A stretch of 64,000 bases of DNA from an uncultured Acidobacteriota bacterium (lineage in GTDB: Bacteria; Acidobacteriota; Thermoanaerobaculia; Gp7-AA8), in NCBI GenBank assembly GCA_963822445.1, contig CAWGHO010000001.1, positions 384,001 to 448,000 on the forward strand, read 5' to 3'. Below, piece after piece: positions 26,455 to 35,617 of this stretch (within the stretch, counting starts at the first letter, position 1; the number at the start of each line of letters is the position of its first letter). The translations under genes and the position numbers were made by a program. The notes under the pieces were generated by a model. The model was not told the origin of the DNA and ran no database searches. It worked only from the letters and a program-made list of their open reading frames with translations.

Positions 26455-27530
26455 CGCGTTACGTCGTCGAGCTCGCGCGAAACGAGGACGACGCCGCCCT
26501 GCGCGGCCTGCTCGCGCGCAACTCGATGGCCGGACCGATCGAGCTGGCCTTTCTGCGCGAGCCCGGATACTTCCTCGCGTCCCCCGTTCAGGCCCCGCGA
26601 CACCAGATCATCGTCGCGCGCGACGGCAAGGAAGTCGTCGGCGCTGCATTCCGCGGCATCCGCAAGACCTGGCTCAATGGCCAGGTTCGCGACGCCGGCT
26701 ACCTCGGCGATCTCCGCCTCGACGTAGCCCACCGCGGCGGCTCGCTGGTCGCCCGCGGCTATCGCTTTCTGCGCGAGTTGCACGCTGACCGCGGCGCGTC
26801 GCTGTACCTGACTCTCATCGCCGGCGCGAATGAAATCGCGCTGAAGACGATCGCCGCAGGCCGCGCCGGCCTGCCGTCGTACAAGCCACTGGGCCGGATC
26901 TTCACCCCAGCGGTGCGGCTGAGTGGATGGTCGAAGAAACCGGCGCGAATCAAGATCGTGCGCGGCAGTGAAGTCAGCCGAGGCGAGCTCGCGGCGTGCC
27001 TTCAACGGAATCTCGCCCGCCGCCAGTTCGCGCCGTTCCTCGATCTCGAGACGCGCTTTCCCGGTCTGACCCTCGACGATTTCGCGGTCGCCGTGCGCGA
27101 TGGGAAAGTGATCGGCGCGGTCGCGGCGTGGGATCAGAACGCATTCCGGCAGACGCGTGTCGTTCGCTACCGCGGAACGGTGCGGGCGGGACGGCCGCTG
27201 TACAACCTCGTGGCGCCGCTGCTCGGCACGCCGCGCTATCCGAAGCCGGGCGAAACGCTGCGATTCTTCTACGCGTCCTTCGTCGCCATCGATGACGACG
27301 ATCCGGAAGTCTTTCGCGCTTTGCTGGCGCGTCTCGCAGCCGACCGCGCCGGGCGTTACCACTATTTCGTGGTCGGACTGCACGAGCGCGATCCGCTGCT
27401 GCCGGTCGTGAATCAGTTGCCGAGAACGCCATTCACCGCGCATGCGTTCGCCGTCCATTTCGAGGACGGCCTGGAGGATTTCGAATCGCTCGACGGACGC
27501 GTGCCGTACGTCGAGCCGGCCATGCTATGA
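26451..27530 (+). CDS. GNAT-fold protein (tandem GNAT-like)
   Basis: FLREPGYF, GYLGDLRLDVAHRGG motif A; GTGA coupling. Confidence 0.65.
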   Translation: MTRYVVELARNEDDAALRGLLARNSMAGPIELAFLREPGYFLASPVQAPRHQIIVARDGKEVVGAAFRGIRKTWLNGQVRDAGYLGDLRLDVAHRGGSLVARGYRFLRELHADRGASLYLTLIAGANEIALKTIAAGRAGLPSYKPLGRIFTPAVRLSGWSKKPARIKIVRGSEVSRGELAACLQRNLARRQFAPFLDLETRFPGLTLDDFAVAVRDGKVIGAVAAWDQNAFRQTRVVRYRGTVRAGRPLYNLVAPLLGTPRYPKPGETLRFFYASFVAIDDDDPEVFRALLARLAADRAGRYHYFVVGLHERDPLLPVVNQLPRTPFTAHAFAVHFEDGLEDFESLDGRVPYVEPAML

Positions 27531-30256
27531 GCACGCTCACCGCCGACACACCGCTTTCCACACCGCAGGTAACCGCGGCCGCGAGACGTCTCGACGCGCG
27601 GATTCCGTTCGCGATCCTGCTGACGCTCTACGCCGTCGCGGGCGTGACCGTTCTGCGCTTCAACCGCACGCCGCTGCAAATGCTCATCACCGTCTCCGCG
27701 ACCTGTGCACTGGACATGTTCTTCGCGCGCGTCATCCGCCGCGAGAAGCTCGTCCCGCTCAGCGCCTACATCAGCGGCCTCTCGCTCGCGCTGCTCCTCA
27801 ACTACGCGCACGACAGCTGGATTCTGCTTCTTCCGGTCTTCCTGACCATCGCCTCCAAGTACGTCCTCACGTTCGAAGGGCGCCATGTCTTCAACCCGTC
27901 GATGTTCGGAGTCGCGGTCTCGCTGCTGATCGGCGGAGACCTCATCACCACCGCGCCCGCGTATCAGTGGGGCGGCGGCGCGGCCGGCACGTGGGCGATG
28001 TCCGCATTCCTGGCCGCCGCCGCGCTCTCGCTTTTCGTCTTCCGCGTCGGACGCGCGCCGCTGATCGTCTCCTTCCTCGGCTTCTACGCCATCCAGATTC
28101 TGCTGCGCGCCTACTGGATGCGCTGGTACCTGCCGCCGGAGTCGCTGATCCTCGGCACGCTCACCAGCGCACCGTTCTTCCTCTTCGTCTTCTACATGAT
28201 CACCGACCCCAAGACTTCGCCGGCCAGGCCGCGCGATCAGGTCCTGCTCGCGTTCGGGCTCACCGTCGTCGATCTTCTGTTTCACACGCGCGGCAGCCTC
28301 TACACCTTCTTCTACGCCGCGCTGGTCGTCGCATCCGCGCGTTTCGTCTTCCTTCACCTCCGCCGCAGACGATTCGCATTCAACGCCCGCGCATGGACCG
28401 TCGTCGCCGCAACCGGCGCGGTGATGATCGCGACGTACGCGATAACCGTGCAGCCCTTCGCCGCACCGCCGCCGCTCACATTCGACTTGGTGAAGCTCGA
28501 TCCACTGCAGACCGGCGTGGCGCCGAAACTCGACGGCTCGATCATCAACGAGGCCGATCCGCGCGTGCGTCACATCGCCAAGTGGCTCCTCTCCGCGGGT
28601 GACGCGGCAGCCGCGGCGGACTTCGACAACGACGGCCGGCTGGACCTCTTTCTCTGCGGTCCCTTCAAGACCGTCGACGACCGGGCTATCCTCTATCGCG
28701 GCACCGGGGCGATGACGTTCGAGCGCGTCCGCGTACCGGCGCTCGAGAAAATCGTCGCCGACCCGCGCCGCTTCGGCATCATCTCCAGCGGCTCGTTCGT
28801 CGATCTCGACAACGACGGCGATCGCGACCTCTTCCTCACCGTCGGTTACGGCCGCAGCATCCTTCTGCGCAACGACCTTACCGAGCGCGGCGTGGCGGAG
28901 TTCGCCGAGGTTGCGGATGCGGGGACGGGCGATTACTCGATCAGCATCGCCGCGAACTTCCTCGACTTCGACAACGACGGAAAGCTCGACGTCTTCGTCG
29001 CCAACGCTCTCGATCCGATGCTCCGCAAATACGACCCGCCGCGGCCGCTGAGCATCTTCGCGCTCGAGCAACCGGAGCATCCCGGCGACCGCCGCATGCT
29101 GCCGTTCATGCACAGCAGCTGGGACAACGCGCGAAACGGCGGCCCTAACGTCCTCTACCGCAACCAGGGCGCCAACCGCTTCACGCGCGTCGATCCGGGC
29201 ATGCCCGAAACGCACTGGAGCCTGTCGGTGGCGACGGCGGACTTCAACGGCGACGCGCGCACCGATCTCTACGTCGCCAACGACTTCGGTCCCGACGACT
29301 TCTATCTGAATGAAGGGAAGGGGCGCTTTCGCAAGATCGAAGGGCGCATCGCCGGCGAGATCAGTCACGACACGTACAAAGGCATGAACGCGTCGCAGGG
29401 CGACGTCGACCGCAATGGCCATCCCGACGTGTATGTGTCGAATGTGCACATGCCGCTGCAGGCCGAAGGAAGCCTGCTGTGGATGACCTACCCGGGGCGC
29501 GATGGCGTGCCGGAGCTGCGCGACGAGGCCAATCAACGCGGCGCGCTCAACGAGCATCGCTTCGGCTGGGGCGGGGCGATGGGCGATCTCGACAACGACG
29601 GCTGGCTCGACATCGTCCAGGCCAACGGCATGATCGACGACGCGTTCGACAGGAAATTCGAGCAGTGCCGGGATTACTGGTACGTCAACGAGAAGCTGAT
29701 GCGCTCCGGCCCGGAGATTCACACCTACGCGGACAAGTGGGGCGATCTGCGCGGCTACTGCATCAACGGGCGCGAGTCGAATCGCGTGTACCTCAGCCGT
29801 GGCGATCGCGAGCGGCTGCAGTTCGCCGACGTCGCCCCGCGCCTCGGCTGGAAGGACGAGCCTCCATCGCGCGGCGTCCTCCTCGCCGACTTCGACGACG
29901 ACGGCGATCTCGACCTGGGCATGACCCACATCACCGCGCCGATCACGCTGTACCGCAACACGCGCAATGAGCGGGGCGGGCGGTGGATCGGCTTCGACGT
30001 CCGCGGAAACGGAACGACGTGCAATCGCGACGCGGCCGGCACGCGAGTAACCATCTCCTATCCGGAAAACGGACGTACCGTGACCCAGATGCGCGAGATC
30101 TCGATCGTCAACGCGTTCGCCGCCCAGGGCGATCGCCGCGCGCTCTTCGGCCTCGGCGACTACAAAGGCGACGTCGACGTGACCATCTCCTGGTGCGGCC
30201 GCAGCGAGACCCGGATGCGCGTCAACACGAATCGCTATCACGTGATCCAACAATGA
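27527..30256 (+). CDS. Fusion: RnfD/NqrB-like (UnbU-like) membrane domain + FG-GAP propeller + ASPIC/UnbV domain
   Basis: Multi-TM N-terminus with FNPSMFG and YMITDPKTSP; about seven DxDxDGxxD repeats; C-terminal RDAAGTRVTI...ALFGLG. Confidence 0.8.
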   Translation: MSTLTADTPLSTPQVTAAARRLDARIPFAILLTLYAVAGVTVLRFNRTPLQMLITVSATCALDMFFARVIRREKLVPLSAYISGLSLALLLNYAHDSWILLLPVFLTIASKYVLTFEGRHVFNPSMFGVAVSLLIGGDLITTAPAYQWGGGAAGTWAMSAFLAAAALSLFVFRVGRAPLIVSFLGFYAIQILLRAYWMRWYLPPESLILGTLTSAPFFLFVFYMITDPKTSPARPRDQVLLAFGLTVVDLLFHTRGSLYTFFYAALVVASARFVFLHLRRRRFAFNARAWTVVAATGAVMIATYAITVQPFAAPPPLTFDLVKLDPLQTGVAPKLDGSIINEADPRVRHIAKWLLSAGDAAAAADFDNDGRLDLFLCGPFKTVDDRAILYRGTGAMTFERVRVPALEKIVADPRRFGIISSGSFVDLDNDGDRDLFLTVGYGRSILLRNDLTERGVAEFAEVADAGTGDYSISIAANFLDFDNDGKLDVFVANALDPMLRKYDPPRPLSIFALEQPEHPGDRRMLPFMHSSWDNARNGGPNVLYRNQGANRFTRVDPGMPETHWSLSVATADFNGDARTDLYVANDFGPDDFYLNEGKGRFRKIEGRIAGEISHDTYKGMNASQGDVDRNGHPDVYVSNVHMPLQAEGSLLWMTYPGRDGVPELRDEANQRGALNEHRFGWGGAMGDLDNDGWLDIVQANGMIDDAFDRKFEQCRDYWYVNEKLMRSGPEIHTYADKWGDLRGYCINGRESNRVYLSRGDRERLQFADVAPRLGWKDEPPSRGVLLADFDDDGDLDLGMTHITAPITLYRNTRNERGGRWIGFDVRGNGTTCNRDAAGTRVTISYPENGRTVTQMREISIVNAFAAQGDRRALFGLGDYKGDVDVTISWCGRSETRMRVNTNRYHVIQQ

Positions 30257-31146: not shown

Positions 31147-32211
31147 CTACTCGGCGCGGCTCGATCCCGGCTCGTACACCCATTCGGTCTGCGTCTTGGC
31201 CCCTTCGGCGAAGCGCGGATCGATGTACTCCTCGAAGGCGATGTCGCGTTCGAGCACGCCCGTTTCGCGCATCAGCTTCACGATCAGCTCGAAGTCTTCG
31301 CGCAACGGTGTTAGCGGCTGGTACTGAACGCGATCGAGCGGGTTCGTGAGCGCCCACTTCAGCAATCGCGGGTCCTGGCGGAAGTAGAAGCGTCCGACGA
31401 AATCGGCGGCATGCTCGCGGCGTGCTCGTTTCTTTGGCGGGTTGTCGAGCCAGAGGCCGGATCGGGCGATGCCGTCGACGAGGACCTGCACGGCTTCCTG
31501 TTTCTTCTCGATCACGTCCTCGCGCACGACCAGGACGCAGGAGATGTAGTCCGGCCAGTACTCGCGCGCGTGGAAGAGGACGCGGCCGAAGCCGGCCATC
31601 TCCGCCTGGGACGGGTAAGGCTCGCCCATCGAGAAGGCGTCGATCGCTTTCGCCGCGAGCGCGCCGGCAACGTCGGGCGGCGCCATCTCGACCATGCGCA
31701 GATCGCCGGCGCTCATCCCGTTCGCGGCCAGCGCACGGAAGAGGATCAACCGCTCGTCGGAGTAGCGGCTGGGAATGGCCACAGTCTTCCCCTTCAGATC
31801 GGCGAAGGTCTTCACCGATCCGTTCTTGTGCACCACCACGGCGCTGCCGTAGCGATGTCCGAGGTAGACGATCCTGATCGGAACGCCCTGAGCACGCAGG
31901 GCGATTGCCATCGGCGCGACCATGAACGCCGCCTGCATCTGATTCGAGATCAGCGCTTCCTTGATCTCAGGGAAGCCCTGAAACATCCGCGGGATGAACA
32001 GATGACCCGACTTCGAGTAGGCGGAGATGTAGTCGGTGACCGGGCACGCCAGGTGTCACGTCACCGGGATGTACGCGACGTTGAGCTTCCGCTCGCTCTC
32101 CGGCAGCCGGTCATTGAGCAGCACCGTCCAGTCGACGTTCGCGGTCATATGCGCCGCGGTGATGAGAACTACCCAGGCCGCGATCATGTAAGCGATTTTG
32201 CGCGATGTCAT
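31147..32211 (-). CDS. NrtA/SsuA-like ABC substrate-binding protein with in-frame TGA at codon 52 (candidate selenoprotein)
   Basis: GGAGGT SD and ATG at 32211 are in frame with the 31986 ORF (75 codons upstream). The only interruption is TGA at 32058-32056 in AYIPVT*HLACPVTD. Includes an N-terminal hydrophobic anchor and LKGKTVAIP, GEPYPS motifs. Confidence 0.85.
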
Positions 32212-32231
32212 TTGTTCACCTCCCTTCGGTC

Positions 32232-32309
32232 GAGTTACGGGGTTTCGAGGTTACGGGGTTACGGGGTTTCTCCTCCTCGTAACCTCGTAACCCCGCAACC
32301 TCGAAACCT
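32232..32309. repeat. Inverted octamer tandem arrays (consensus RGGTTACG ... CGTAACCY)
   Basis: About five G-rich units then four complementary units, between the permease stop and the SBP ribosome-binding site. Confidence 0.9.
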
Positions 32310-33033
32310 AATCATTGAACGCCCACCTCACCCTCCTCGCCTTCTCCATCCTCTGAATGGCCATGTCCAGTGCGAGGCCGATCACTCCGATCAGGAGCAT
32401 TCCTCCGACGACCAGGTCATAGCGCTTGCCCGCGTTGCGGGCGTCGATGATGAGGTAGCCGAGGCCGGAGTCGACGGCGATCATTTCGGCGGCGACGAGA
32501 ACCAGCCAGGCCACGCCGAAGGCGATGCGCAGGCCGACCACGATGCGCGGGAGGATGGCCGGGAAAATGACCCGGACGATCAGCGCGCCCGTCGAGAGGC
32601 CGAAGTTGCGGCCGGCCTGCACGTACATCGGCGGCACGTTGCGCACGCCGTTCATCGTCGCCACCACGATCGGGAAGAACGACGCCAGGAAGATCAGAAA
32701 AATCGGCGCGAGATTGCTGACGCCGAACCAGATCACCGCGAGCGGCATCCAAGCCAGCGGCGAGATCGGCCGGAGCATCTGGATGACCGGATTCGCCGCG
32801 CGCGAAAGGGCACTCCACCACCCCAGGGCCAGGCCGGTCGGCACGCCGAGGATCACCGCGGCGAGGTAACCGCTCCCGACGCGGAAGAGCGAGTCGGCGA
32901 TGTACGCGGCGAGATGCGGCAGCTCGCGGAGGCCTTTGAGCACGTCCAGCGGCGACGGAAAGATCGTCGTGCCGGTCAGAAGAACGGCCGTCTGCCAGAT
33001 GGCGATCACGATCAATGGCACGAGCACTCTCAT
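32308..33033 (-). CDS. ABC transporter permease (SsuC/NrtB-like)
   Basis: LRPISPLAW, AGRNFG EAA loop, VAAEMIAVDSGLGYLI. Confidence 0.92.
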   Translation of the reverse strand: MRVLVPLIVIAIWQTAVLLTGTTIFPSPLDVLKGLRELPHLAAYIADSLFRVGSGYLAAVILGVPTGLALGWWSALSRAANPVIQMLRPISPLAWMPLAVIWFGVSNLAPIFLIFLASFFPIVVATMNGVRNVPPMYVQAGRNFGLSTGALIVRVIFPAILPRIVVGLRIAFGVAWLVLVAAEMIAVDSGLGYLIIDARNAGKRYDLVVGGMLLIGVIGLALDMAIQRMEKARRVRWAFND

Positions 33034-33794
33034 ACCTGGTGGGCCAGTCCGATCTCGCCGAAGATCTCATCGCGGCAGGCGATGTAGCGCGGGTCGCTGA
33101 GATCGCGGGGATGCTCGATGCCCACGTCCACGATCCGCTGCACGCGGCCGGGGCGGGCGCTGAGCACGACCACGCGATCGGCGAGCTGCACCGACTCCTC
33201 GATGTCGTGCGTCACGAACAGAATCGTCTTGCGCTCGGCCTCCCAGATCCGCAGCAGTTCGCGGCGCATCTGCAACCGCGTGATCGAATCGAGCGCGCCG
33301 AACGGCTCGTCGAGATAGAGCACGTCGGGATTCACAGCCAGCGCGCGGGCCACTTCCAGCCGCTGCTTCATGCCGCCGGACAGCTCGCGCGGATACGACT
33401 TCTCGAATCCGCGCAGGCCGACCATGGCCACGTAATGCGCGACCCGCTCGCGCTGCTCCTTCTCATCGAGGCGGAAGAGACCGAAGGAGATGTTCTGCTC
33501 GACGGTGAGCCACGGAAAGACGCCGCGCTCCTGGAAGACGAAGATGCGGCGCGGATCCGGCTCGGTGACCCGCTCGCCGTCGATCGTCACCTCTCCCTCC
33601 GTCGGCGTGATGAAGCCGCCCACGATGTTCAGCAGCGTCGATTTGCCGCAACCCGACGGGCCGAGGATGCAGACGAATTCGCCTTCGTGGACGTCGAGGG
33701 TGATGTCGTCGAGGACGCGCATGCCCGCAAGGGCATCATGGCCAACGGCCCCGAAGTTCATCCCCACGTTGCGGAAACGGACCTTGGTCGTCAC
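33030..33794 (-). CDS. ABC transporter ATP-binding protein (SsuB/TauB-like)
   Basis: GPSGCGKST, LSGGMKQR, DEPFGALD, VTHD; GTG start overlapping the upstream permease stop. Confidence 0.92.
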   Translation of the reverse strand: MTTKVRFRNVGMNFGAVGHDALAGMRVLDDITLDVHEGEFVCILGPSGCGKSTLLNIVGGFITPTEGEVTIDGERVTEPDPRRIFVFQERGVFPWLTVEQNISFGLFRLDEKEQRERVAHYVAMVGLRGFEKSYPRELSGGMKQRLEVARALAVNPDVLYLDEPFGALDSITRLQMRRELLRIWEAERKTILFVTHDIEESVQLADRVVVLSARPGRVQRIVDVGIEHPRDLSDPRYIACRDEIFGEIGLAHQV

Positions 33795-34547
33795 TCGGCC
33801 GCGTACCCCCAGCGCACACCCGGCAATCGCTCGAAGCGGCGCATGATCAGATCGAGGACCACTCCGATCAGGCCGATGAGGATCATTCCGGCCACGACCA
33901 TGTCGTAGCGATTGCCGGCATTGCGCGCGTCGATGATCAGAAATCCGAGTCCCGAGCTCACGGCGATCATCTCCGCGGCCACGACCACCAGCCAGGCGAT
34001 GCCGAGGGTGATGCGCATGCCGACGAGGAGCTGAGGGAGGATGGCCGGGAGCACGACGTTGCGGACCAGCTCGCGGTGCGTGAGACCGAAGTTGCGGCCG
34101 GCGGCGAGATGGATGCCCTCGATGTTGTGCACCGCGTGAATGGTGGTCAGGGTCAGCGGAAGCGCCGAGGCGAGGAAGATCAGGAAGATCGCGGCGGTGT
34201 CGCCGACGCCGAACCAGAGGATGGCGATGGGGATCCAGGCCAGCGGCGAGATCGGCCGCAGGAGCTGCAACATGCGGGTTGATCGCCATCTCGCCGCGGC
34301 GCCAGAGGCCGAGGAGAACGCCGGCCGGAACGGCGATGAGGAGCGCGGCGAGATATCCCCAGGTCACGCGATAAAGCGAGGCCACCACGTAGCGGAAGAG
34401 CAGGCCGCGCTCGGCGAGCTCGACGATCGCGCGCGCCGCTTGCGCGGGCGTGGGAACCAGCGTCCCCGCCGACCAGGCCACCGCGAAATGCCAGGCGGCC
34501 ACGACCAGAGCGAGACCCGAGAACGGAAGGAGATACCGCGAAAACAT
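33791..34547 (-). CDS. Second ABC permease; one +1 frameshift near 34274
   Basis: MFSRYLLPF...GEMAINP joins MLQLLRPISPLAW...VAAEMIAVSSGLG after removing one base. Confidence 0.85.
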
Positions 34548-34618: not shown

Positions 34619-34634
34619 CGGCACCTGCTTTGCT
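34619..34634 (+). promoter_or_regulatory. sigma54-like -24/-12 promoter
   Basis: CGGCAC-CTGCT-TTGCT, ending 13 nt before ATG 34648. Confidence 0.5.
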
Positions 34635-34647
34635 CCCGTGCCCGCCG

Positions 34648-35617
34648 ATGGCGACGCGTGACGAGATGCCCTCGAGACGAAAAAACGATTACGAGCCCGA
34701 GTCCCTCCCCCTTCGCGTTCTTGCGGTCGACGACGACGGTTCCTATCTGCGCCGTCTGAAACTCGTCCTGACGCGCGCCGGTTTCGATGTGACCACGGCC
34801 GATGACGGCGCCACGGCCATCGAGCGCATTCGCGCCGATCGCGACATCGCCGTGCTGGTCAGCGATCTGTCCATGCCGGGCATGGACGGCATCGAGACCG
34901 TTCGCCGCGCCCGCGAAGCGTCGGCGTTTCCCGGGCTGTACACGATCCTGCTCACGGCGACGGATGGCGTCGAGGTGAAGCTTCGCGCGCTCGACAGCGG
35001 CCTCGATGATTTTCTGACCAAGAGCTCCTCGGACTCGGAGATCGTGGCCAAGCTGCGCAGCGCCGCACGGCGTTTGACGATGGAGCGGCGGCTGCAGGTC
35101 GAGAACGAAGAGCTGCAGACGCTGGCCCTCACCGACGAGCTGACCGGCGTCGCCAATCGGCGCGCCCTCTTTCGCGAGGCCGACGCCGATTCTCGGAGCG
35201 GGACGCGGCTTGAGCGTGGTGCTCTTCGACCTCGATCGCTTCAAGCACGTCAACGACACGTACGGTCACCTGATGGGCGACCGCATCCTCGCCGACGTCG
35301 CCGCCGCGCTGAAGCTCGACACGCGCGTCGGAGACGTGATCGCGCGCTACGGCGGCGACGAGTTCGTGCTCTTGCTGCCCGATACGCGCGGCGACGAAGC
35401 ACGGGCCATCACCGGGCGCATCGTGCGGCGGATTTCCGATCTGCGCTGGGTGATGGGGGACTACGTCGTGACGTCGAGCGTGAGCACGGGCGTGGCCACG
35501 TCGGGATCGGCGAGCACGATCGCCACGCTGCTCGCGGAGTGCGACGCGCGGCTGTACGAGGCGAAGAACGCGATGGATGAGGAAGAGGACGAGCGGGATC
35601 TTCAGTTGCCGATCTGA
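34648..35617 (+). CDS. Response-regulator diguanylate cyclase (REC-GGDEF); +1 frameshift near 35188
   Basis: VLAVDDD, SDLSMPGMDG, TDELTGVANRR, then DLDRFKHVNDTYGH and RYGGDEF in the next frame. Confidence 0.88.

Follow-up and report, generated by a model that had tools for sequence, protein, structure and literature searches.

A predicted selenocysteine-containing substrate-binding protein of an ABC importer in Acidobacteriota

Introduction

In a 64,000-nucleotide (nt) stretch of DNA from an uncultured bacterium of the Acidobacteriota (assembly GCA_963822445.1, contig CAWGHO010000001.1, positions 384,001 to 448,000, hereafter the window), the gene for a substrate-binding protein (SBP) of an ABC importer raises the question of where its translation starts and how one of its codons is read. 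The list of open reading frames for the window begins this gene at position 31986 of the minus strand. An earlier note, made from the letters of the sequence, had pointed to an ATG at 32211 that is preceded by a strong Shine-Dalgarno sequence and lies exactly 75 codons upstream in the same frame, and had proposed that the single TGA between the two starts is read as selenocysteine (Sec). We have followed up this proposal by comparing the gene with its relatives. As the distribution of codons in the TGA column, the presence of the Sec machinery and a constraint on the RNA specific to the Sec-type genes all favour the proposal, the UGA at codon 52 is very probably decoded as selenocysteine by SelA, SelB, SelD and tRNA-Sec. 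The overall explanation that we consider likely is that of a Sec-containing SBP in a four-gene importer, with an RNA element resembling the one in formate dehydrogenase (FDH) genes and with a metal site in the protein.

Results and Discussion

The reading frame extends through codon 52

All that the earlier note had reported on the gene start was found to be correct when the sequence was read again. The frame begins with the ATG at 32211-32209, ends with the TAG at 31149-31147 and is open in between over 354 codons without any need for a frameshift, its single in-frame TGA being codon 52 at 32058-32056. The read-through translation is MTSRKIAYMIAAWVVLITAAH...IPVT*HLACPVTDY, and the start at 31986 in the list corresponds to Met76. 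The listed form was also rightly said to have no export signal, as the hydrophobic N-terminal segment IAYMIAAWVVLITAA is, judged by sequence, confined to the read-through protein. The latter matches the Pfam families NMT1_2 (PF13379; 8.3e-32, 111 bits at a cut-off of 24.7) and NMT1 (PF09084; 65 bits at a cut-off of 20.5), and Phosphonate-bd was matched as well.

Codon 52 alternates between TGA and cysteine

A read-through search of 61 related genomes returned 38 full-length matches. A single TGA is present in 35 of them and absent from the other three. In all 35 the TGA occupies the same column (IPVT*HLACPVTDY), and the remaining three read IPVTCHLACPVTDY. A phylum-wide draw of 401 genomes, 17 of which held a match at E <= 1e-80, added four TGA forms, one of them from a different class, and five cysteine forms. 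The full-length orthologues from whole genomes number 47, with identities of 64-100%, and comprise 39 TGA and eight Cys forms; three more distant relatives (45-48% identity) also have a C-x3-C loop. At least 591 relatives were confirmed in a scan of species-representative genomes, and in the best 80 of these loci, for which the codons were read, column 52 is TGA in 44, TGC in 30 and TGT in six. The earlier note had expected either TGA or cysteine at this position, and no other codon was found in the 47 orthologues or in the best 80 loci. Note that some of these 80 loci belong to the same genomes as the first set, and that unpublished genomes contribute two Sec rows (G002 and G025) and one Cys row (G042), without which the conclusions are unchanged. 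Cysteine is likewise found in column 52 of all 26 full-length database relatives that were fetched, within PVT-C-HL[A/T]-C-P, and the U-x3-C motif of the SBP corresponds to an invariant C-x3-C in the Cys-type relatives.

On the 5' side of the TGA, codons vary synonymously while the encoded residues stay fixed, as for the arginine at -11, for which four codons occur, and the alanine at -6, for which there are three; translation therefore starts upstream, in the same frame, and runs through the TGA. A quick tree of 76 rows contains at least five exchanges between Sec and Cys that are forced by well-supported branches, with parsimony requiring nine, so that there is some independence between the Sec-type and the Cys-type groups. 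The recurrence of the in-frame TGA in one column is far beyond what chance would produce.

Among the best 80 of the at least 591 loci, 78 are labelled as Acidobacteriota and two as Myxococcota. The latter, L155 from a Byssovorax sp. with TGA and L156 from a member of the Myxococcaceae with TGC, carry the gene at identities of 67-68% and represent either a transfer between phyla or mis-binned contigs.

The host has the machinery for selenocysteine insertion

The search for Sec genes that the earlier note had suggested found all of them in the host genome (6.0 Mb in three contigs): selA (405 bits), the winged-helix domain specific to SelB (74 bits), a selD with an in-frame TGA of its own at the site GG-U-ACK, and a tRNA-SeC with the anticodon TCA (UCA). 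Sixty of the 61 relatives have selA and sixty have selB; the two misses concern the genomes G027 (93% complete) and G025 (85% complete), each of which has the other of the two genes. For the 35 TGA-type genomes among them the count is 34 for either gene, with at least one of both in every genome, and a carrier of the TGA allele devoid of Sec machinery, which the earlier note would have taken as evidence to the contrary, was not encountered. The machinery is found throughout the class, so that its presence, although necessary as support, does not discriminate. TGA also serves as the ordinary stop codon of the ATPase gene in the same operon, where it overlaps the following ATG, and the code is therefore not reassigned.

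The host genome contains further selenoprotein genes. These are the selD mentioned above, the FDH alpha subunit (I-U-H; locus L158, at 471697-474603 of contig 3 in genome G000) and two AhpC/Prx-like genes in the contexts PV-U-T and PG-U-T, the last three with one in-frame TGA each (the loci as a whole being L158, L161, L162 and L003). All four genes have a strong hairpin 3' of the UGA, with -12 to -16 kcal/mol within 40 nt.

A constraint on the RNA follows the UGA in Sec-type genes

Synonymous change is suppressed 3' of the UGA. Over codons +3 to +12 the mean wobble entropy is 0.34, compared with a gene mean of 0.84, which makes this the fifth lowest of 285 windows. Nine divergent Sec-type genes have a value of 0.42 in these codons (fourth lowest of 210), and the value for eight Cys-type genes is 0.85 (50th lowest of 198). 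We further contrasted codons and hairpins in 63 unique Sec-type and 43 unique Cys-type sequences. In counts that do not correct for shared ancestry, codon +4 (Cys56) is TGC in 63/63 Sec-type versus 31/43 Cys-type sequences, codon +5 is CCG in 63/63 versus 26/43, codon +8 is GAC in 63/63 versus 37/43, and codon -1 is ACG in 56/63 versus 10/43. At residue 64 (32020-32022) the two groups differ in the protein, with alanine (GCC) in 56/63 Sec-type sequences and arginine or lysine in nearly all of the 43 others, a difference that could serve either the RNA element (G37 C38 C39) or the protein.

Within the constrained region a small stem-loop can be drawn, consisting of the pairs G12-C30, U13-A29 and G14 with U28 or C27 (counted from the U of UGA) and of a 3-bp CGG/CCG core that takes either of two registers, depending on the variable nt 24. 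The core can form in all 63 Sec-type sequences, and core and flanking pairs together can form in 63/63 Sec-type versus 22/43 Cys-type sequences. The 10-mer GUGCCCGGUC, found at nt 12-21 after the UGA of the SBP gene, recurs at nt 16-25 after the UGA-CAC of the host FDH gene, where it constitutes the 5' arm and the loop start of a 7-bp hairpin with the loop GGUCU. It occurs 15 times in 12 Mb, both strands counted. The FDH genes of 27 relatives contain the 10-mer in 25 cases, and their hairpin shows compensatory changes at two pairs. A third genomic TGA located 11 nt before GUGCCCGGUC (contig 3, near 668467) was dismissed, as it runs antisense to a long gene and does not belong to a selenoprotein.

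The SBP element thus shares with the fdhF-type Sec insertion sequence (SECIS) of the host FDH gene the 10-mer at a similar distance from UGA-CAC, and a lower stem GUG/UAC can be drawn in it. The FDH hairpin has seven base pairs, about -13 kcal/mol and the support of compensatory changes in relatives, whereas the SBP element has only a 3-bp core with two or three outer pairs, about -3 kcal/mol, and no matching 3' arm, because the conserved peptide C-P-V-T-D-Y leaves no space for one. In E. coli, SelB recognises one G and one U of the apical loop. From the contrast between the two groups of genes we conclude that a putative RNA element specific to the Sec type is present at nt 10-39 and resembles one half of the SECIS in the FDH genes of this lineage; that exactly this FDH-like element directs the recoding is a proposition for which we see even chances.

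The earlier note had drawn a different hairpin, GGCG..GGUC-ACC-GACU..CGCC, and had described it as not clearly canonical. It can indeed be drawn, is the minimum-energy fold of nt 4-50 at -7.0 kcal/mol and is non-canonical, but it does not hold as a conserved element, since all its pairs are present in only 3/63 Sec-type sequences, and the weak FDH-like element described above accounts better for the observations. Three further candidates were rejected. In a genus-level set, 94.6% of the cells are paired in hairpin B (nt 10-44), but the hairpin is complete in only 27/63 of the wider set and shows no covariation. Hairpin C (nt 23-37) forms in 19/63, and the same pair that provides its two compensatory cells is seen in Cys-type genes. 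Pairing between two copies of CCGGUNAC across the UGA reaches 6.0 of 7 pairs in Sec-type and 6.07 in Cys-type genes, and is therefore a by-product of the repeated P-V-T.

Residue 52 and a putative metal site

The function of residue 52 was approached by a superfamily comparison of 54 diverse relatives, in which column 52 holds Cys in 29, Asp in 16, His in seven and Ser in two sequences and is followed by His in 45. His119 is present in 50 of the 54, and both sequences with Ser52 lack His119 as well as Cys225, so that columns 52, 119 and 225 behave as a unit that is gained or lost together. Column 56 is a cysteine in 26/54 and hydrophobic in the rest, which makes Cys56 specific to the subfamily. 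All 25 sequences with both Cys52 and Cys56 have Ser224, while 25 of the 29 others have Cys, Asp or Glu at position 224, as if the fourth ligand had been shifted from position 224 to 56. The closest solved relative, PDB entry 3UN6 (E 6.2e-22, residues 27-332 versus 19-315), has His, G-H-H and C-C at columns 52, 119 and 225.

Sec is commonly paired with a nearby Cys in redox selenoproteins, and the U-x3-C motif could be understood in the same way, with Sec52 and Cys56 forming a redox-active selenenylsulfide that either gates binding as a switch or covalently captures a thiol, persulfide or selenium substrate. The restriction of Cys56 to the subfamily would suit such a pair, and a 2026 review of the prokaryotic selenoproteome states that a redox function is presumed for the majority of prokaryotic selenoproteins. 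However, column 52 also accommodates Asp and His and is lost together with His119 and Cys225, which fits metal ligation but not a dithiol, and a redox pair would hardly account for the exchange of a ligand between positions 224 (Cys or Asp) and 56 (Cys). In addition, 3UN6 is called a zinc- or metal-binding SBP in the accessible parts of PMC6344411 and PMC13592312, the latter of which refers to it as a 'zinc-binding protein ... of unknown function' and presents for a related SBP an AlphaFold 3 model in which two Cys and one or two His residues hold a metal. We therefore regard the selenenylsulfide as unlikely.

The covariation of the columns and the description of 3UN6 as zinc-binding make Sec52 a probable metal ligand, and a four-ligand metal site formed in the binding cleft by Sec52, Cys56, His119 and Cys225 appears moderately likely. 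For U-H-L-A-C the earlier note had left a choice between a metal- or metalloid-binding and a redox site; the U-x3-C motif as such is real, and these comparisons shift its likely role towards a metal site.

Other readings of the TGA codon

Should the UGA be a genuine stop codon, the gene would be broken or split and would give a product of 279 or 297 amino acids from an internal start. Public records seem to favour this, as most of the best 120 database entries have one of these two lengths, carry generic names and are in no case named as selenoproteins, and a strong SECIS hairpin was not found. However, the 297-residue entries start at Val58, read as Met or Val, which is merely the first GTG or ATG 3' of the TGA, and those of 279 residues at Met76. 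The shortened entries have neither the export segment nor Sec/Cys52 and Cys56, and such a product would be deprived of the first beta-strand and of the conserved loop PVT-x-HL-x-CP. Purifying selection acts in this frame on the 51 codons upstream. In 39 + 44 sequences the supposed stop is TGA without exception, with neither TAA nor TAG in any of them, and Cys is its only alternative in the column. We judge a real stop to be highly improbable. The comparisons instead indicate a genuine selenoprotein that is widely distributed and systematically mis-annotated.

UGA might also be read without selenium, either by a near-cognate tRNA for Trp or Cys or through a lineage-wide reassignment of TGA. Read-through of UGA does occur in bacteria and the SECIS is weak. 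Against this stand the TGA stop of the ATPase gene in the same operon, the alternation of the column with Cys only and never with TGG, the presence of the Sec machinery, and the fact that only the Sec-type genes freeze the bases that copy the FDH SECIS, which together leave very little room for a selenium-free mechanism.

An error in the assembly, to which the single-base insertion in permease 1 relative to 10/10 relatives and the low fraction of sampled words (0.15) in the best sequencing run might point, is effectively refuted by the same TGA in dozens of independent assemblies and by contigs of related strains from the runs X2, X3 and X5 that bridge 32056-32058 with no listed difference.

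The operon and its neighbourhood

The features of the locus are collected in Table 1. Upstream of the SBP gene, the same strand carries two permease genes and one ATPase gene, in agreement with the two-permease importer of the earlier note. The order permease 1, ATPase, permease 2 and SBP is kept in all 13 relatives that were fetched with wide flanks, and in each of them permease 1 is a continuous frame. In the window there are seven bases at 34270-34276 where 10/10 relatives compared have six; this place follows the Asn-Pro codons, which read AAC CCG in the window, and precedes the next CAG. In two contigs of run X3 a base is missing at 34275, and in one contig of run X2 there is no gap.

Table 1. 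Positions of the features at the SBP locus, given in window coordinates
Feature	Position	Strand	Remarks
SBP gene, full-length	31147..32211	minus	354 codons + TAG; N-terminal hydrophobic export/anchor segment; NMT1_2/SsuA-like fold
Shine-Dalgarno sequence GGAGGT	32218..32223	minus	6 nt before ATG 32211; starts of relatives at equivalent place
UGA codon 52, predicted to be read as Sec (T-U-H-L-A-C)	32056..32058	minus	TGA/Cys column in orthologues
Cys56 codon (TGC), second residue of U-x3-C	32044..32046	minus	invariant in alignment A3
His119 codon, proposed metal ligand	31855..31857	minus	superfamily alignment; aligns to first His of 3UN6 G-H-H
Cys225 codon, proposed metal ligand	31537..31539	minus	invariant in alignment A3; co-varies with columns 52 and 119
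Candidate SECIS region, nt 10-39 after U of UGA	32020..32049	minus	Sec-specific suppression of synonymous change
Mini stem-loop, nt 12-30	32029..32047	minus	10-mer GUGCCCGGUC at 32047-32038
Permease 2, 241 amino acids	32308..33033	minus	BPD_transp_1, NitT/TauT type, no Cys; profile match; synteny 13/13
ABC ATPase, about 256 amino acids, start approximate	33030..33800	minus	ABC_tran 2.9e-33; TGA stop overlaps permease-2 ATG
Permease 1, split over two frames	33791..34547	minus	one extra base near 34270-34276

The spacer between permease 2 and the SBP gene (32241-32308, minus strand) holds a near-perfect hairpin of 68 nt that begins at the stop codon of permease 2. It folds with -53.5 kcal/mol (z = -6.5), which none of 200 shuffled sequences attained, and may serve as an intercistronic stabiliser or as a processing site, or may represent a REP-like element. 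Strong but unrelated hairpins occur in this spacer in the relatives L016 and L047, and other relatives have short spacers without a hairpin.

The neighbours in the window include a response regulator beside the operon (34630-35580, plus strand), a Rieske protein, sigma and anti-sigma factors and others. Outside the four genes, the flanks vary from relative to relative. In the context of six distant genomes no conserved metabolic neighbour was found, and only receiver-domain genes recur. In relatives (flanks of L053, L055 and L058) these comprise GGDEF or HD domains joined to a receiver domain, a histidine kinase accompanied by a distinct receiver-domain gene, and Ser/Thr kinases that include a receiver domain. 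Further away, at 27527-30256 of the plus strand, a protein of 909 amino acids combines an N-terminal match to NQR2/RnfD/RnfE (8e-12, residues 29-135) with FG-GAP repeats and an ASPIC/UnbV domain, which is an unusual pairing.

Comparison with known transport systems

In NCBIfam all three component types of the importer are nearest to the nitrate/sulfonate/taurine group and to the SAO system, and remain below the equivalog cut-offs. The SBP has the fold of the cluster-F proteins NrtA, CmpA, SsuA and TauA, with the Pfam domains NMT1_2 and NMT1, a match to TIGR01728 (SsuA_fam, 1.9e-35) and SsuA, TauA, CmpA and NrtA among its PDB matches, and the operon is of the same type, with NitT/TauT permease and ATPase. 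It differs from these proteins in staying below every curated equivalog cut-off (SsuA_fam, for example, 122 versus 163.5), in its Cys/Sec-His-Cys site and in an operon with two different permease genes.

The first Sec-containing SBPs of ABC transporters, proposed in 2022, were SaoB, with a CU motif, and a rare form of SaoX, according to the report by Haft and Gwadz (bioRxiv 10.1101/2022.07.06.499078), and the accessible text of the 2026 review lists SaoX (in a UxP form), SaoB and a form of BtuF. As far as these sources describe them, SaoX and SaoB resemble the present SBP in having Sec in place of a Cys at what is presumed to be a metal-binding site in the cleft, and in being truncated in databases. 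SaoX moreover belongs to the same broad NitT/TauT/SsuA-like fold, and its partner ATPase and permease to the same transporter family. The present importer nevertheless falls short of the SAO models in NCBIfam, with 59.2 versus 300 bits for SaoX (NF040735), 153 versus 295 for the permease SaoP and 239 versus 360 for the ATPase SaoA. Its Sec is part of a U-x3-C motif on the first loop, unlike the CU and UxP given for SaoB and SaoX in those texts, its permeases have neither Sec nor Cys, and it occurs in soil Acidobacteriota where the SAO hosts are strict anaerobes such as clostridia. From the nine-gene SAO neighbourhood, no further family (SaoL, SaoB, SaoE, SaoC, SaoT or SaoD) was assigned to any of the scanned neighbours.

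Also close to the present SBP are 3UN6, an SBP of Staphylococcus aureus, and the SBPs encoded beside clade B Ni-CODH genes. Ligand-type residues are present in 3UN6 at the columns of Sec52, His119 and Cys225; a His stands for Sec52, a Leu for Cys56 and C-C for S-C. The parts of PMC6344411 and PMC13592312 that were available contain no mention of a Sec form of SBPs of this type, and no CODH gene is found among the scanned neighbours of the present operon.

The available text of the 2026 selenoproteome review gave no match for UxxxC, PF13379, PF09084 or TauT, although its supplementary tables could list the family, and the accessible main texts on deep-Sep and BSepDB have no entry for ABC transporter, substrate-binding, sulfonate or NMT1, which their supplements could again contain. 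As the SaoX model is not reached, the SAO neighbourhood is absent, the Sec is located at a different place and the hosts are Acidobacteriota, we assign the SBP to a new predicted family of selenoproteins of a recently recognised kind.

Proposed mechanism and implications

In the mechanism that we propose, the gene would give a full-length, exported SBP for an importer of the NitT/TauT type composed of permease 1, ATPase, permease 2 and SBP, and SelA, SelB, SelD and tRNA-Sec of the host would decode the UGA of codon 52 as selenocysteine. The recoding would probably be steered by a short and weak RNA element 10-30 nt after the UGA, which would copy the 5' arm and the loop start of the FDH SECIS as far as the peptide C-P-V-T-D-Y permits. 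Sec52, positioned on the loop after the first beta-strand, would hold a metal in the cleft together with Cys56, His119 and Cys225, and this metal may be either the cargo itself or a cofactor by which a small anionic substrate is held. At one ligand position sulfur would then be replaced by selenium, an exchange that has taken place repeatedly in evolution. The combination of a Sec that is a direct metal ligand in the cleft of a nutrient-importer SBP common among soil Acidobacteriota, as a non-redox use outside the cytoplasm, with its insertion by means of a minimal half-SECIS is put forward tentatively, as a reading less likely than not.

Several points weigh against this interpretation. The evidence for Sec is comparative rather than chemical, and selenium in the protein is a prediction. 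A canonical stable SECIS was sought 3' of the UGA of the SBP gene without success, and a search of Rfam at E values of up to 10 gave two chance snoRNA rows only. The small hairpin reaches about -2.9 kcal/mol at best and a pair probability of about 0.02 in its context, RNAalifold consensus structures from 35, 37 and 63 sequences range from about 0 to -3.7 kcal/mol, two of them having -2.7 and -3.7 kcal/mol, and no compensatory change backs any hairpin in the SBP genes, to which the neglect of ancestry in the codon counts is to be added. The metal site is derived from covariation in the alignment and from accounts by others of 3UN6 and of an AlphaFold 3 model. The insertion of one nucleotide in permease 1 may render the importer defective in this strain, unless it is an assembly error, both permeases are devoid of the Cys that would allow a thiol relay as in the SAO system, and the gene neighbours, in the window as in the flanks of relatives, give no clue to the substrate.

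The family is separate from SaoX and SaoB and apparently much more populous, with at least 591 relatives and Sec forms in about half of the best 80, and it belongs to one of the dominant phyla of soil. As its public records are cut at the UGA, functional or structural work that sets out from them starts with the wrong protein, one that has lost the export signal and two of the four putative metal ligands. The Sec/Cys exchanges, at least five in number, make the family a natural series in which to ask what selenium adds at a binding rather than a catalytic site, and it provides a test case for weak SECIS elements that are missed by standard finders and by Rfam. If the proposed mechanism is true, SelB works with far less RNA structure than search tools require, which would explain why the family was missed, and selenium tunes what the cell captures from soil water.

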